A DNA stretch of 48,090 bases, taken from positions 1 to 48,090 of the forward strand of contig CANQBF010000003.1 of the NCBI GenBank assembly GCA_947588895.1. The letters run 5' to 3'. Below, one piece after another: positions 14,440-20,451 of the stretch. The stretch is from an uncultured Bacilli bacterium (GTDB lineage Bacteria > Bacillota_I > Bacilli_A > RF39 > UBA660). The notes under the pieces are model-generated. The model was given only the letters and a program-made list of their open reading frames with translations. It was not told the DNA's origin and made no database searches. Every line of letters begins with the position of its first letter. Positions within the stretch are counted from its first letter, which is position 1. Made by a program: the position numbers and the translations under genes.

Positions 14440-15543
14440 TCAATTTATTGTACCTAAATATTCTACAATTACTCTAACTGTTGGATTAACAAAATAAGAA
14501 CGAGTATTTTGAATTGAATTTATAAATGGTGATTTTAAATTAATTGTATCTAAAGATAAATTTACAAGTTCATATTGATTATTTTCATCTTCTACAGTAA
14601 TTATTCCTTCTCCATGTAATTCTTGTATTTCACCTCGATATATATATTTACTATCTCCTACATATATTGAATCAGTATCTTTTTTTCTAAATCCAATAGC
14701 AATAAAATCTTTATCTTCATTAAAAGTTTGATTTGCTTTTTTATAAGCATAAACCATAAAAGTAATTTTATAATATCCAGTTTTATTAAAACTAACTAAA
14801 TAATCTGGTGAAACACTTGTTAATTCTTCACTTTCCATTTCTTTTCTTTTTATTGGAATTCTTGAATTAGAAGCAACTTCAAAACCATCATATGGATAAC
14901 TTTCATTAAATGTTATTAAATAACTAGCTTTTATTTTTTCTGGTCCACTTGGCCCTGTAACTCCTGGTTCTCCTTGAATACCTTGAGGACCCATTGGTCC
15001 CATTTCGCCTTTTTCTCCCTTAGGACCTCTTATTACTCCAACATCTTTCCACTTATTTTCATTTTCACTCCATACATATAAATTATCATTAATTAAATAT
15101 CCATCACCTTGTTTACCACTTTCATGCTCTTTCATTAAATCTTCAAGATTATCATAAGAGCCTTCAATAGTTACACTTGTTCCTGAAGGACCTATCGCAC
15201 CCGGTATTCCTGGTTCTCCCTTATCACCTTTTAATCCTCTAGCACCAGGTTCTCCTTTATCTCCCTTTTCTCCTTTTGGGCCGGTTGCTCCCATAGGAAT
15301 ATAAAATTCTAAACGAGCATTATTATTATCACCAACATTAACTACCTTAGCTGTCATAGAAGGATCAATTGTTTCTACTTTAGCCACTTCAATTTGGGTA
15401 AAACTAGCTGGTCCCGTAGGTCCTATTTCTCCTTGAGGTCCTCTTTCTCCCTGTGGTCCAGTTGGCCCTGGTATTAATTTTATTCCAAAACTATTTTGAC
15501 AACATTTGTTATTTTTATTACAATTATTAAAATAATTATTCAT
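14440..15543 (-). CDS. Collagen-like protein
   Basis: Three Gly-X-Y blocks separated by globular spacers; Cys/Asn-rich N-terminus; C-terminal beta-rich domain. Confidence 0.85.
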   Translation of the reverse strand: MNNYFNNCNKNNKCCQNSFGIKLIPGPTGPQGERGPQGEIGPTGPASFTQIEVAKVETIDPSMTAKVVNVGDNNNARLEFYIPMGATGPKGEKGDKGEPGARGLKGDKGEPGIPGAIGPSGTSVTIEGSYDNLEDLMKEHESGKQGDGYLINDNLYVWSENENKWKDVGVIRGPKGEKGEMGPMGPQGIQGEPGVTGPSGPEKIKASYLITFNESYPYDGFEVASNSRIPIKRKEMESEELTSVSPDYLVSFNKTGYYKITFMVYAYKKANQTFNEDKDFIAIGFRKKDTDSIYVGDSKYIYRGEIQELHGEGIITVEDENNQYELVNLSLDTINLKSPFINSIQNTRSYFVNPTVRVIVEYLGTIN

Positions 15544-16268: not shown

Positions 16269-16297
16269 TTGACATACCCAATATTTTAAGGTAAAAT
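16269..16297 (+). promoter_or_regulatory. Sigma-A promoter of tRNA-Cys
   Basis: TTGACA-17 nt-TAAAAT. Confidence 0.8.
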
Positions 16298-16320: not shown

Positions 16321-16394
16321 GGAGCCGTAGCCAAGTGGTAAGGCCCCGGTCTGCAACACCGTCATCGCCGGTTCAAATCCGGCCGGCTCCTCCA
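16321..16394 (+). tRNA. tRNA-Cys (GCA)
   Basis: Acceptor GGAGCCG/CGGCTCC, anticodon loop CTGCAAC, GGTTCAAATCC T-arm, U73 discriminator, encoded CCA. Confidence 0.97.
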
Positions 16395-16408
16395 ATTTTG
16401 TTTATATC

Positions 16409-16437
16409 TTGCATAAATACTAATTTTATGGTATTAT
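16409..16437 (+). promoter_or_regulatory. Promoter of putative antitoxin RNA
   Basis: TTGCAT-17 nt-TATTAT with extended -10 TG. Confidence 0.7.
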
Positions 16438-16460
16438 GTATTTAGCAAGAAAATTTGCAT

Positions 16461-16498
16461 AAAATAAAAAAGGAACATTCAATTTTGCAAGTGAATGT
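16461..16498 (-). terminator. Terminator of toxin mRNA
   Basis: ACATTCA-N10-TGAATGT hairpin followed on the minus strand by TCCTTTTTTATTTT. Confidence 0.55.
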
Positions 16499-16519
16499 CG
16501 CCTCTAAATTATTTGAGTT

Positions 16520-16555
16520 GACACTCTATCAATGCTGAAGAGTGTCTATTTTTTT
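16520..16555 (+). terminator. Terminator of antisense RNA (also stops tRNA read-through)
   Basis: GACACTCT (16520-27)/AGAGTGTC (16539-46) followed by a T tract. Confidence 0.8.
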
Positions 16556-16638
16556 ATTGCTAGCACCAATAAGGTAGAAAGTAGCAAAATGATAGAAATA
16601 AGCTTTAGAACTTTTATAATAAAAGCCTTAATATTCAT
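16546..16638 (-). CDS. Putative type I toxin, 30-aa hydrophobic membrane peptide
   Basis: MNIKAFIIKVLKLISIILLLSTLLVLAIKK*; strong RBS GAAAGGAGGT; single TM helix with C-terminal KK. Not in the ORF track. Confidence 0.8.
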   Translation of the reverse strand: MNIKAFIIKVLKLISIILLLSTLLVLAIKK

Positions 16639-16704
16639 TAATATCTAACCTCCTTTCTTTTTCAAGATTGGAGGACGACACTCACATCAAACGTTCCTAA
16701 TAAA

Positions 16705-16733
16705 ATTATATATCATAAACAAATATTAAACAA
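16705..16733 (-). promoter_or_regulatory. Promoter of toxin peptide gene
   Basis: Minus strand TTGTTT-17 nt-TATAAT. Confidence 0.7.
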
Positions 16734-16898
16734 GCGAACAAATAAAAACTATAATATTTATTTTAAAATTTATACTTTAAATCAAGTGTTTATTTCAAAA
16801 TAGCAAAGGATATTCTAAATATTTATAAATAAATGTTTCATAAATTATAAAAATATAATATACTATTACTTGCAATAGAAATTTTTTGGGAGGAATTT

Positions 16899-17609
16899 AT
16901 GGAAATTATAGATATTTTAAAAAAATATAAAGAAGATAAATTAATTAAAATGATTCACAAAAATAAATTAAATATTAATTTAGAAGAATTACTTATTGAA
17001 AGTGTTAATTTAGGATATAATAAGTTAAGTAATTATTTAATTGATAAAGGTATATCATATGAATATATTAATAAGTTAGATTTTGATTGTTATTTAATGG
17101 CTGTATATCGTGGAAATATTAATATTGTAAAAAATTTAATGACAAAAGGATTGAATTTATATAAAAAATATAATATTGATAATAATGATGTATATGCTAT
17201 TAGTTATGTTATAGATTTAGAAACTTTTAAGTTTTTTGAGAGTCAAAAATTACCAAATGATATTTTTAATAAATGTATTAAAAAAATAGTTTATAATACT
17301 ATATATTCTCATAATATAGAATTATTATCTTATTTAATTGATAATTATCATATCGATATTACCAAATTTGTTTATAAAATAGAAAATAAAAATTATAATA
17401 TTTTAGATAAAACAAAAGAATATTTGGATAATATGCTTGAAATAGAAAAAAGAAAAAGAGAAATGACATATTTTATAGATAGTATCTTTAGTGATAAAAA
17501 ATATTCTAAAGAAATCAAAATAGCTTTTGATAAATTAAAAGAAATTGAAAAAGAAAATGATGAATTAAAACAATATTATCAATTTATAGAAAAACAATTT
17601 AAAAATTAA
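16899..17609 (+). CDS. Ankyrin-repeat-like protein
   Basis: LIESVNLGYNKLSNYLIDKG and YLMAVYRGNINIVKNLMTKG fit the ankyrin repeat pattern; GGGAGG RBS. Confidence 0.7.
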   Translation: MEIIDILKKYKEDKLIKMIHKNKLNINLEELLIESVNLGYNKLSNYLIDKGISYEYINKLDFDCYLMAVYRGNINIVKNLMTKGLNLYKKYNIDNNDVYAISYVIDLETFKFFESQKLPNDIFNKCIKKIVYNTIYSHNIELLSYLIDNYHIDITKFVYKIENKNYNILDKTKEYLDNMLEIEKRKREMTYFIDSIFSDKKYSKEIKIAFDKLKEIEKENDELKQYYQFIEKQFKN

Positions 17610-17663
17610 AAAAGCAAAAATTTATTTTCTTGCTTACCTATAAACTTAAATAAATAATTATAT

Positions 17664-18209
17664 CTATCTAGATTTTCCATTAGATACGTTATCTTTTAAA
17701 GAATTCTGTATCTCTCTAACATCAAAAACATTTGTTATCAAAGACATAGGTATAGGATTCTTAGTCCCTGATGATTTAAAATGTTTAACAGATGGGTCAT
17801 ATGCTAAACGATTACCATTATCAAAGGAAGGTATAAAATAATCTTTATAAGCTGGACATTCTAAAATAATATAACCATATTGTAATGATACTCCACCTAA
17901 AAACCAATTAACACCCTTATTATTATAAAATTTTTGACCATTTTCTTCATATTCTTGATATTCATCATCAATAACATTTCCTACAATAAACCCTAACTCT
18001 AAATAATGTTTATATGTTTCTTCACTAACAGCCCTATAACAATGGTCAGGTTTTAACTTATAGTTACCTATTTCTTTAATAGTATGGTCTCTTTCTGCAA
18101 TCATCTTTTCTTTTGGAGATAATGATTCACCACGTATTATTTTCTCTTGAACTTCTCTTAAACTTTTATCACTAGATAATGGTATAGTTTGAACATTATA
18201 TAAATCCAT
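17664..18209 (-). CDS. Hypothetical protein (possible ADP-ribosyltransferase-like fold)
   Basis: GAGGT RBS; CYRAVSEE...LGFI segment resembles ART strand-1 motifs. Fold assignment is speculative. Confidence 0.7.
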   Translation of the reverse strand: MDLYNVQTIPLSSDKSLREVQEKIIRGESLSPKEKMIAERDHTIKEIGNYKLKPDHCYRAVSEETYKHYLELGFIVGNVIDDEYQEYEENGQKFYNNKGVNWFLGGVSLQYGYIILECPAYKDYFIPSFDNGNRLAYDPSVKHFKSSGTKNPIPMSLITNVFDVREIQNSLKDNVSNGKSR

Positions 18210-18229
18210 ATTAACCTCACTTAATTTTA

Positions 18230-18769
18230 CTATTTATATTTTCTCAAATTTAAATTATATTTATTATCTTCAAATAATAGATGAACCAAAGGATAAGGTA
18301 ATCCAACACTTTTCTTAAATTTATCAACAATGACTTCATTTAAGTCATCTAAAAGAATTAATTCATCAATACAATCTGAATCTTCTAATTCTTTTATCTT
18401 TTTATACTTTTTGTTAAATAACCATTGCATGGATAAGATATTATTTTCTTCAGTTATATAAAATAATGTTGGTTCTCCAAATTTTTGACTTAATATTAAA
18501 TAAAAGTCACTCAATACTGATAATTTTTCTTTTACAGTTTTGTTATCTAAATTACTACCTATATTTAATTTTAAATAATTATTTTTATTATAATCAAACG
18601 AAAAACCAATTTCATTAGACATTAATTCATTATTAATATCTAAAAAGTATTTACCACTTATATGTGGTTTATTAATACTGTCAACAAATATAATTTTTTT
18701 TCCTAATATTTTTTTTAATTCAATTGCTATTGCATAAGAATTATATGGTACTACATTTTTATGTTGCAA
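18230..18769 (-). CDS. Hypothetical protein
   Basis: TTG start after AAAGGAGGT RBS. Confidence 0.7.
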   Translation of the reverse strand: MQHKNVVPYNSYAIAIELKKILGKKIIFVDSINKPHISGKYFLDINNELMSNEIGFSFDYNKNNYLKLNIGSNLDNKTVKEKLSVLSDFYLILSQKFGEPTLFYITEENNILSMQWLFNKKYKKIKELEDSDCIDELILLDDLNEVIVDKFKKSVGLPYPLVHLLFEDNKYNLNLRKYK

Positions 18770-18836
18770 AATAATACCTCCTTTATAAAAACTTTCTTTA
18801 GAACGTATTATACAATAAATTACATCATTGTGTAAA

Positions 18837-19151
18837 TTATTTTTTTAAATCTTTTACTTCTTTTTTTAAATTTTTAATTTCTTTTTTATAATTTTTTATA
18901 TCTTTCTTAGAAACATAATCATAATCTTTATATTTTTCATAATTAACATCTGTATTATATCTAATCAAAACTAAAAATAATATAGAATTTATAAATGCAC
19001 ATATACAAGATATACTTATTACAATAATTTGTAATGATTCATACAAATTAATTTTTTTTAAAATAAAACTAATAGATACATTTATAAGACCAATTATAAA
19101 CAATATTAAAACAATAGAAGTTAATATATTATAAATTCTATCTTTTTTCAT
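18837..19151 (-). CDS. Hypothetical membrane protein (2 TM)
   Basis: Two hydrophobic segments and a charged C-terminal tail. Confidence 0.7.
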   Translation of the reverse strand: MKKDRIYNILTSIVLILFIIGLINVSISFILKKINLYESLQIIVISISCICAFINSILFLVLIRYNTDVNYEKYKDYDYVSKKDIKNYKKEIKNLKKEVKDLKK

Positions 19152-19260
19152 TTAAACACCAACTCTTATTCTTATTATAACATTATAATTTTAATTTATT
19201 GCTTTTTTTACTTTAATATTTAAAATTTAACGTCAAATGAAAAAGATAACAATTGTTACC

Positions 19261-20451
19261 TTATATTATTAGATTACCATTTTTCATAATAGTAATCCTT
19301 CCATCTTTAGTATCAGCATCAATTTGCATATCTTTTGTACCTATCATAAAATCAACATGATTTTGACATTTATTAATTCCTATTTTATCTAATTCTTCTG
19401 GTGTTTTTTTAATACCATCTTGAATACATTCTAAAAATCCCATACCTAGAGCTAAATGACAAGAGGCATTTTCATCTAAAAGTGTTGTATTAAAACAAAT
19501 ATTAGTTTTAGAAATAGGTGAATCATAATCTACTAAAGCTGCTTCTCCTAAGAATTTCATTCCTTTTTCACTTTCTAATATTTCCTTTAAAATATCTTCT
19601 CCTTCTTTAGCTTTAAAATCAATTACTTTTCCTTTTTCAAATTTCAAATAAAATTCATCAATTATTTTTCCATTATAAATTAATGGTTTAGAACTATAGA
19701 CTATACCATTTGTTTGATGATAATCAGGTGTCGTAAATATTTCATAACTAGGTATATTAACAATAACATCGCCTTCTTCAGCATTTTGCCATCTAGCCTT
19801 TTCAGGAATAGCAACTTCTAAATTAGTACCTAAAGAATTAGAATAATATAATTTAGAAATTTCTAAATTATTTAATTTTTCTTTTTTCTTTTCTTGGGAT
19901 TTTAAAAAAGTATCCCAATTTTTAACTGCATTACCTTCAAGCATACATAAATTACTTAAAACATTCCAAAATTCTTGCATTGAATCTTTACTATCAGGAA
20001 ACAAAGAATCAGCCCAATACTTATTTGGAACTGCTGCTATACACCAAGGAATAATACCTTTACCTTGATATTCTCGATATAATGGTTTTGTTTCTAAACA
20101 AATTTTAGATTTTAATGCAACTTTATCACTATCGACATCAGTCATTAAATTTGGAATTTCACTACAAATCATTAAGAAAGATGCTTTCTTTTTAGCATAT
20201 TTATCCCACATATGAGAATTAAATAAAGGATTATCTTTTATTTCATCTAAAGTAGATGTTTTTAAAATATCATGAATTTGAAAAATATTAGTAACATCTA
20301 AATAAATATCATCAATACCTTTAGATTTAGCATAACTGACTAATTTTTCAATAAAATCATTGTTAATCTTATCATAACTAATAAATAATGAATTTCCCTT
20401 TTGTAATCTTAAACAACCATCAACTAATAACTTAATATATTCAGTTTCCAT
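19261..20451 (-). CDS. Aminopeptidase, M29 family (AmpS/PepS-like)
   Basis: NIPSYEIFTTP, LGEAALV, DENASCHLALG, HVDFMIG motifs. Confidence 0.93.
   Translation of the reverse strand: METEYIKLLVDGCLRLQKGNSLFISYDKINNDFIEKLVSYAKSKGIDDIYLDVTNIFQIHDILKTSTLDEIKDNPLFNSHMWDKYAKKKASFLMICSEIPNLMTDVDSDKVALKSKICLETKPLYREYQGKGIIPWCIAAVPNKYWADSLFPDSKDSMQEFWNVLSNLCMLEGNAVKNWDTFLKSQEKKKEKLNNLEISKLYYSNSLGTNLEVAIPEKARWQNAEEGDVIVNIPSYEIFTTPDYHQTNGIVYSSKPLIYNGKIIDEFYLKFEKGKVIDFKAKEGEDILKEILESEKGMKFLGEAALVDYDSPISKTNICFNTTLLDENASCHLALGMGFLECIQDGIKKTPEELDKIGINKCQNHVDFMIGTKDMQIDADTKDGRITIMKNGNLII

Follow-up and report, generated by a model that had tools for sequence, protein, structure and literature searches.

What does the unannotated segment directly downstream of the tRNA-Cys gene encode in this 48,090-nucleotide stretch of DNA from an uncultured Bacilli bacterium (the window, on contig C3 of a 1.1-Mb genome with 24% GC and 83% completeness)? 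The original prediction, made from the letters alone, proposed a type I toxin-antitoxin (TA) pair laid out like txpA/RatA or bsrG/SR4. All sequence-level expectations of that layout that we tested were borne out. We consider it very probable that the locus is a bsrG/SR4-like type I TA module with a new, family-restricted peptide lineage, acting as an addiction unit for variable DNA. To the original description we add an anti-SD hairpin, a 5'-3' helix, a wider family and a mobile context. Transcription, toxicity, decay by RNase III, addiction and recombinase activity we infer from sequence. Sporulation-like genes are present in the genome, and the window also holds a Mutator-family transposase (431-1639) and a collagen-repeat protein (14440-15543). 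The locus and its surroundings are laid out as follows.

16269..16297, + strand: tRNA-Cys promoter, TTGACA-17-TAAAAT (generic scan, 11/12 matches).
16321..16394, + strand: tRNA-Cys(GCA), CCA encoded; presumed anchor of a variable island (tRNA search and genome comparison).
16395..16408, + strand: spacer from CCA to the antisense promoter, probably a left arm shortened by ~30 nt.
16409..16437, + strand: antisense promoter, TTGCAT 16409-16414, 17 nt, TG-N-TATTAT 16432-16437 (sequence; conservation).
16444..~16556, + strand: predicted antitoxin RNA of ~113 nt with 5' hairpin and A-rich tract, middle hairpin and terminator hairpin (putative ends).
16462..16500, - strand: toxin mRNA terminator, stem 16499-16474 and then a U-run; both arms also pair with the 5' leader (folding).
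16520..16555, + strand: antisense terminator, stem 16520-16546, U-run 16549-16555 (folding).
16546..16638, - strand: predicted type I toxin, a 30-aa single-helix hydrophobic peptide (ORF, conservation, structure model).
16649..16674, - strand: SD-sequestering hairpin, CCTCC:GGAGG with a GAAA cap (folding).
16670..16699, - strand: 5' leader of the long-range 5'-3' helix; mRNA start ~16699 (folding, covariation).
16705..16733, - strand: toxin promoter, TTGTTT 16733-16728, 17 nt, TATAAT 16710-16705 (sequence; conservation).
16899..19151, no strand assigned: four low-GC ORFs (236, 181, 179 and 104 aa), likely island cargo, up to a conserved M29 peptidase gene (ORF list, genome comparison).

The 30-aa ORF with a single transmembrane segment (16638-16546, minus strand) on which the original prediction rested was present; its peptide has five Lys and zero acidic residues and formed one helix in the structure model (pLDDT 92). 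The strong ribosome-binding site claimed for it was also found, as the SD AAAGGAGGT at 16656-16648, ten nt ahead of the ATG, and both SD and start codon are conserved. The peptide's own promoter and terminator lay where they had been placed, the promoter-like pattern being retained in 72/85 intact copies of the module and the terminator 89% paired. The convergent antisense gene over the stop codon, put at ~110 nt, came to a predicted ~113 nt with conserved signals; its promoter-like pattern was kept in 80/85 copies, and both promoter patterns are loose ones scored without a shuffle control. As claimed, the locus adjoins the 3' side of tRNA-Cys, with 14 nt between the CCA and the antisense -35 box. 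The two RNAs overlap by ~95 nt that include the stop codon and the last codons of the ORF. The U-run of the antisense terminator complements the Lys-Lys-stop codons and thereby dictates the C-terminal Lys-Lys, which does not count as separate evidence. In the mRNA this terminator region forms a hairpin of the 3' UTR, and the leader box is an alternative partner for its left arm.

A generic scan of promoters and terminators listed neither module promoter, because both -35 boxes match at only 3/6 positions, and neither terminator, because the loops are too long. It found 23 promoter-like sites against 18.9 expected. By this outcome a single locus alone would be weak, and we therefore relied on folding and conservation. 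The predicted toxin mRNA (16699-16462, ~238 nt) folds at -71.7 kcal/mol (z -7.65, 0/200 shuffles); this z score together with conservation across copies excludes a chance origin. The antisense RNA gave z -2.4, with 5/200 shuffles as low. Homology among module copies begins and ends at the two promoters. Copies of the tRNA-Cys type also carry a 40-nt imperfect inverted repeat across the whole antisense promoter (16409-16448 in the window) with no U-run after it. This repeat might serve as an operator or, in a transcript reading through from the tRNA, as a processing signal.

In the mechanism that we propose, the ~238-nt mRNA would be silent by folding, its SD held in a hairpin and its first ~30 nt paired to its last ~45 nt. 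Both mRNA ends would be shielded by this helix, probably from nucleases. The ~113-nt antisense RNA would pair with ~95 nt of the mRNA 3' end, including the stop codon, and displace the leader; the long duplex could then be cut by RNase III, whose gene is present in the window genome. If the locus were lost or antisense transcription stopped, the longer-lived mRNA would be translated, and the peptide, inserting into the membrane, would arrest or kill the cell. The module would serve as an addiction unit for variable DNA, with many copies at the left end of small cassettes stacked behind the 3' ends of tRNA/tmRNA genes and the window copy as first item of a 2.9-kb variable island at tRNA-Cys.

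The island was recognised by comparing genomes. Across 12 genomes of the genus that share this arrangement, tRNA-Cys lies ~50 bp to 8.6 kb from the convergent M29 peptidase gene; in about 10 others the peptidase gene lies upstream instead. The 2.9-kb gap of the window holds the TA pair and the four low-GC ORFs, three of which were checked and belong to clusters of 1-2 members. The ORF at 16899-17609 is ankyrin-like, weakly and below cut-off. The left end of the window copy lies at a tRNA 3' end, as would that of a cis-mobilisable element (an att-flanked, integrase-less island), and the same type of left end also follows an att-like junction (see below) in locus L032. No right-end att site was found in 16395-19300 with an HMM and a relaxed pattern, so that delivery of the window copy by a recombinase is an association only. 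Elsewhere in the same genome att-like sites occur on contigs C22, C77 and C14, and one recombinase on C21 is cut by the contig end. In the common form of the left end, with 60-nt spacing, the antisense -35 box is embedded in a hairpin and U-run expected to terminate the tRNA transcript. The window spacing of ~30 nt lacks that hairpin and U-run, and tRNA-Cys may, speculatively, read through into the antitoxin; a 33-nt form of the spacing occurs in L152.

To place the module among its relatives, 98 copies were taken from a set not chosen for tRNAs; 6 lacked room and 19 were tandem, leaving 73 that come first in their array. Seventeen of the 73 lie directly behind a tRNA or tmRNA gene (Cys, Met, Arg, Thr, Leu, Ala, tmRNA), all co-oriented, where a rough estimate from the 23 tRNA genes of the window genome gives a chance expectation of a few per cent. 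Another 11/73 follow an att-like junction and 45/73 follow ordinary sequence. The junction consists of a conserved ~27-nt arm with NNCCA at its end. It was found at 31 loci of the species collection and in 15/42 genomes of the genus, against 0 for the reversed control. Among 68 distinct sites, 30 have a tRNA or tmRNA gene upstream in the available sequence and 30/30 are on the same strand; downstream tRNA/tmRNA genes are also same-strand in 5/5 cases, so that strand bias contributes to this figure. The last five bases of the site equal the end of the resident tRNA in 23/25 cases, and about 5-7 nt are shared at the CCA end. The sites bound cassettes of 1-3 genes (acetyltransferases, hydrolases, NUDIX, KilA-N, TIR), and the same cassette turns up at other tRNAs in other genomes. 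Complete units of tRNA, arm, TA, gene and site, right-end att site included, were present in L122, L125 and L136. Stacks of 3-4 junctions behind one gene, each junction bounding 1-3 cargo genes, were seen at L082:7541-15111 (the same region as L142), L127:2768-9792 and L213:7001-12806, behind tRNA-Thr, tmRNA or tRNA-Leu.

A large serine recombinase and MobV lie between tRNA-Leu and an att-like site at L140:6519-12296. Recombinases with domains PF00239 and PF07508 were identified in L140, L166-L195 and L206-L225, and relatives of the L140 protein occur in 53/121 genomes. Of the best 30 recombinase loci, 24 have a same-strand tRNA or tmRNA gene of ten gene types 450-1400 bp upstream, and three of the other six lack room. 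These loci share left arms with those that precede TA modules. Two recombinases that are 96% identical sit one at tRNA-Leu and one at tmRNA. A TA module lies inside a recombinase element in L215 and right after one in L223. The recombinase is often followed by an ORF of ~450 aa or a MobV relaxase, and an ORF of ~90 aa stands ahead of it in L140 and L117. A different serine-recombinase element, oppositely oriented, follows a truncated third TA copy behind tRNA-Ala (L080:2193-6163). A record with the title uncultured Clostridia (L120:6766-8031), from a genome without a TA match, likewise contains the att-like site together with tRNA-Arg and a left arm; this is either transfer beyond Bacilli or a binning error.

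Tn7-type elements end in TGT/ACA inverted repeats. The cassette ends are not of this kind, and Tn7-type insertion was rejected; a tyrosine integrase is an unlikely driver, one being near only 2/31 site loci. We tentatively propose, with somewhat less than even confidence, an integron-like gene-capture system in which a single large-serine-recombinase lineage can use nearly every tRNA or tmRNA gene that ends in NCCA, integrating at the CCA end and building stacks of integrase-less cassettes of 1-3 genes. The type I TA would be the left-end addiction unit that holds the stacks, and its antisense promoter would lie inside the tRNA terminator, so that in window-like copies tRNA transcription would also feed the antitoxin. 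The Islander paper states that serine recombinases targeting many tRNA genes were not known. The word 'tRNA' is absent from the main text of Durrant et al. (PMC10083194), and a search of mostly open-access literature returned no paper on site-specific targeting of tRNA genes by metagenomic large serine recombinases. The present loci point to serine recombinases that apparently do target many tRNA genes. Such an enzyme could supply a portable integrase acting on a landing site that is near-universal and non-disruptive, and the arrays may show how genomes of ~1 Mb acquire and retain accessory genes.

The same setting bears on a second reading, that this is a genuine TA pair whose main role is phage defence (abortive infection) or dormancy and not cassette retention. 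Both are listed among the roles of type I systems (PMC6563280). We regard this as possible, though rather improbable. The 45/73 first-in-array copies that stand away from a recognisable att site suit it, and the window tRNA-Cys, having no terminator before the antisense RNA, could tie the antitoxin to tRNA transcription. The position at cassette left ends and the copy inside the L215 recombinase element fit maintenance instead, and the roles are not exclusive.

We then asked how far the module extends and what constrains its peptide. Homologous loci in related genomes, named in the original prediction as a check, were abundant: blastn found the module in 186/301 genomes of the order and in 80/127 genera. 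The closest copies to the window module are in other genera (91% and 87%), the best within the genus being 85%. The module was absent by blastn from 349/349 Bacilli genomes outside the family, and an RNA model matched 0/148 genomes outside the family with 24 candidates scored per genome. The window genome has four complete copies (C3, C18, C28, C51) and three partial ones. Most family peptides have 25-32 aa; they combine a basic N-terminus with a Leu/Ile helix and form several subfamilies. Over 79 same-length pairs, differences at first, second and third codon positions numbered 325/174/469, with pN/pS ~0.32; the peptide ORF is under purifying selection at the sequence level.

The family itself proved as unrecognisable as had been claimed, the peptide being without a meaningful match in Pfam, NCBIfam, PHROGs or Rfam, libraries that presumably hold the BsrG, BsrE, TxpA, Fst and Hol_Tox families. 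Not one of 39 peptides scored meaningfully against a toxin family in Pfam, NCBIfam or PHROGs, and homology to those five families was not found there; short hydrophobic peptides diverge fast, so that remote kinship to named toxin families may exist. The weak scores comprised one HokA match (E 0.12) and SecE-like matches in 4/39 (best E 0.0046). In Rfam only the tRNA of the locus reached gathering score, neither module RNA being matched. The ESM Atlas gave no meaningful match, its top score of 0.76 going to a nameless entry. A profile search of 1.84 billion representatives returned 42 matches; the 20 examined are of the same peptide family, mostly within longer mis-called ORFs, and the exact window peptide was absent among called proteins. 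Viral contigs gave 0 exact-pattern matches for the antisense motif or the att-like site, and phage and plasmid records gave no blastn match to the module. By these sequence comparisons the peptide lineage is new, family-restricted and outside every named peptide family tested. A search of mostly open-access literature returned no paper joining type I toxin-antitoxin, tRNA and RF39. The module would add an abundant type I TA family that gene callers overlook.

The way in which copies decay was also informative. There were 139 distinct matches, 18 of them at edges; of the other 121, 87 were intact, 28 retained the antisense RNA but no intact ORF, 2 were the reverse and 4 had neither. The 28:2 asymmetry carries a bias, since no part is easier to detect than the antisense 5' end and loci were picked from matches to it. 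Read-through or alternative-start ORFs account for some of the 28. One of the two reverse cases has a decayed promoter and leader. In the other, L047, an IS splits the overlap and leaves the peptide ORF and its promoter intact; this IS (L047:422-2198) has two ORFs and short inverted ends and is inserted in the loop of the antisense terminator. Decay mostly spares the antisense RNA and loses the peptide, which, as a sequence pattern, is only supportive of toxicity.

These observations can be set against the idea that the peptide is not a toxin but some other small membrane protein controlled by an antisense RNA, perhaps one that regulates a membrane complex. Its conservation and hydrophobicity suit any small membrane protein; the weak SecE-like scores in 4/39 members (best E 0.0046) and L047, which retains the ORF without an overlapping antisense RNA, lean the same way. 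Such a protein would hardly explain why genomes carry multiple divergent, predicted mutually insulated copies and tandem arrays, nor the horizontal spread, the double silencing of the SD and the peptide-biased loss, and we consider it quite unlikely.

Further support for a TA module came from RNA folding. From loci fetched within the genus, 57 full-length modules were extracted, and mRNAs were delimited by pattern in 47/57, 10 being dropped. The 47 mRNAs fold with a median z of -8.2, and 44/47 have >=15 long-range pairs. In the window the long helix joins the first ~30 nt to both terminator arms, and the G's of the SD have an unpaired probability of <=0.03. Across 44 aligned mRNAs, 19/21 pairs of the 5'-3' helix vary on both sides and 92% of cells are paired (0/500 shuffles; slid registers <=53% paired); kin copies are not independent, so that covariation and counts overstate support. 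The pairing is G-U-rich and in 41/46 copies stronger for the mRNA than for the complementary strand, which argues that selection acts on the RNA. Two competing helices are also conserved, that of the terminator (89% paired) and one between the leader box and the 3'-UTR hairpin arm (91% paired, in a register chosen post hoc from the slid control; one column off gives 33%). In predicted stepwise folding the first partner of the leader box is the 3'-UTR hairpin arm and the later one is the left arm of the terminator, and the final form is computed to be 12 kcal/mol more stable than the terminator form. The early leader helix may delay lock-in so that termination occurs, after which an end-protected, untranslated state would follow.

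Antisense binding to the mRNA was predicted at about -92 kcal/mol, with the SD hairpin staying closed and lengthening. Among the four complete copies of the window genome, cognate duplexes reached -88 to -103 kcal/mol and non-cognate ones -0.4 to -12.6 kcal/mol; the copies are predicted to be mutually insulated. With compensatory variants available in nature and paralogues predicted to be insulated, the folding path and the rules of specificity can be tested directly. No part of the module is more conserved than the antisense 5' hairpin and A-rich tract (16444-16472), which hold 16/18 invariant columns and lie mostly beyond the overlap.

We assigned the locus to type I from a conserved hydrophobic single-helix peptide within 20-60 aa, a convergent antisense gene within 60-200 nt over the mRNA 3' end and ORF, predicted from conserved sequence signals, and a computed sequestration of the SD in cis together with 5'-3' long-range pairing. 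A repeated non-coding element (a bidirectional terminator or mobile-element end) with an incidental ORF is highly improbable: facing terminators and inverted repeats alone lower folding energy and Leu/Ile-rich ORFs arise readily at 24% GC, but SD and start are conserved, third codon positions vary most (pN/pS 0.32) and the pairing is G-U-rich and strand-asymmetric.

The type I TA module and its setting can be compared with known systems. The cassettes resemble the ssrA islands of Dehalococcoides with the DsiB serine integrase (PMC3146451) and IME/CIME accretion (PMC5704250) in having a serine recombinase, tandem islands at the tmRNA 3' end, integrase-less members and, in some, a MobV relaxase. 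Dehalococcoides uses one target, ssrA, with a 20-bp repeat (PMC3146451), whereas the cassettes here use ten tRNA/tmRNA gene types with ~5-7 shared nt, hold 1-3 genes and have type I TA modules at the left end. In the Vibrio superintegron (cited in PMC6563280), TA units likewise stand among single-gene cassettes, plausibly limiting deletion; that system involves type II TA, a tyrosine integron integrase and attC hairpins, none of which were seen in the arrays here.

Fst/RNAII (par) shares with the module a small hydrophobic peptide, an SD hairpin and convergent RNAs. The repeats of par are direct repeats, unlike those of the module, which are inverted (leader versus 3' end). An Fst/RNAII-type reading was rejected, since the module antisense RNA covers the stop codon and Fst RNA does not overlap the ORF (PMC8594479). 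In txpA/RatA, sprG1/SprF1 and C. difficile CD2517.1/RCd8 (PMC8594479, PMC6563280, PMC8309996), as in the module, the antisense RNA reaches into the ORF, the SD is strong, the C-terminus is basic and paralogues are many. SprF1 has a purine-rich, ribosome-binding 5' region (PMC8309996), and the antisense RNA of the module is also purine-rich there. In contrast to these systems, the module peptides span 25-32 aa, have a basic N-terminus and match no family, and the module is linked to tRNA-anchored cassettes where they are linked to prophages or CRISPR arrays.

The closest likeness is to bsrG/SR4 and bsrE/SR5 of B. subtilis (PMC3834814, PMC6562991), which have the same convergent 3' overlap and a small single-transmembrane peptide. 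In bsrG the SD also lies in a 4-5 bp GC stem and the mRNA 5' end pairs with the 3' region in a long helix, P1 (PMC3834814); SR4 binding is reported to lengthen the SD helix, as predicted for the antisense RNA of the module. The module has no sequence match to bsrG or bsrE in the libraries searched, is not prophage-borne in the collections searched, and has a predicted antisense RNA of ~113 nt against ~180 nt in the bsrG/SR4 type. The bsrG terminator is a stem-loop apart from P1 (PMC3834814), whereas the leader of the module invades both terminator arms, an architecture that sets it apart from bsrG.
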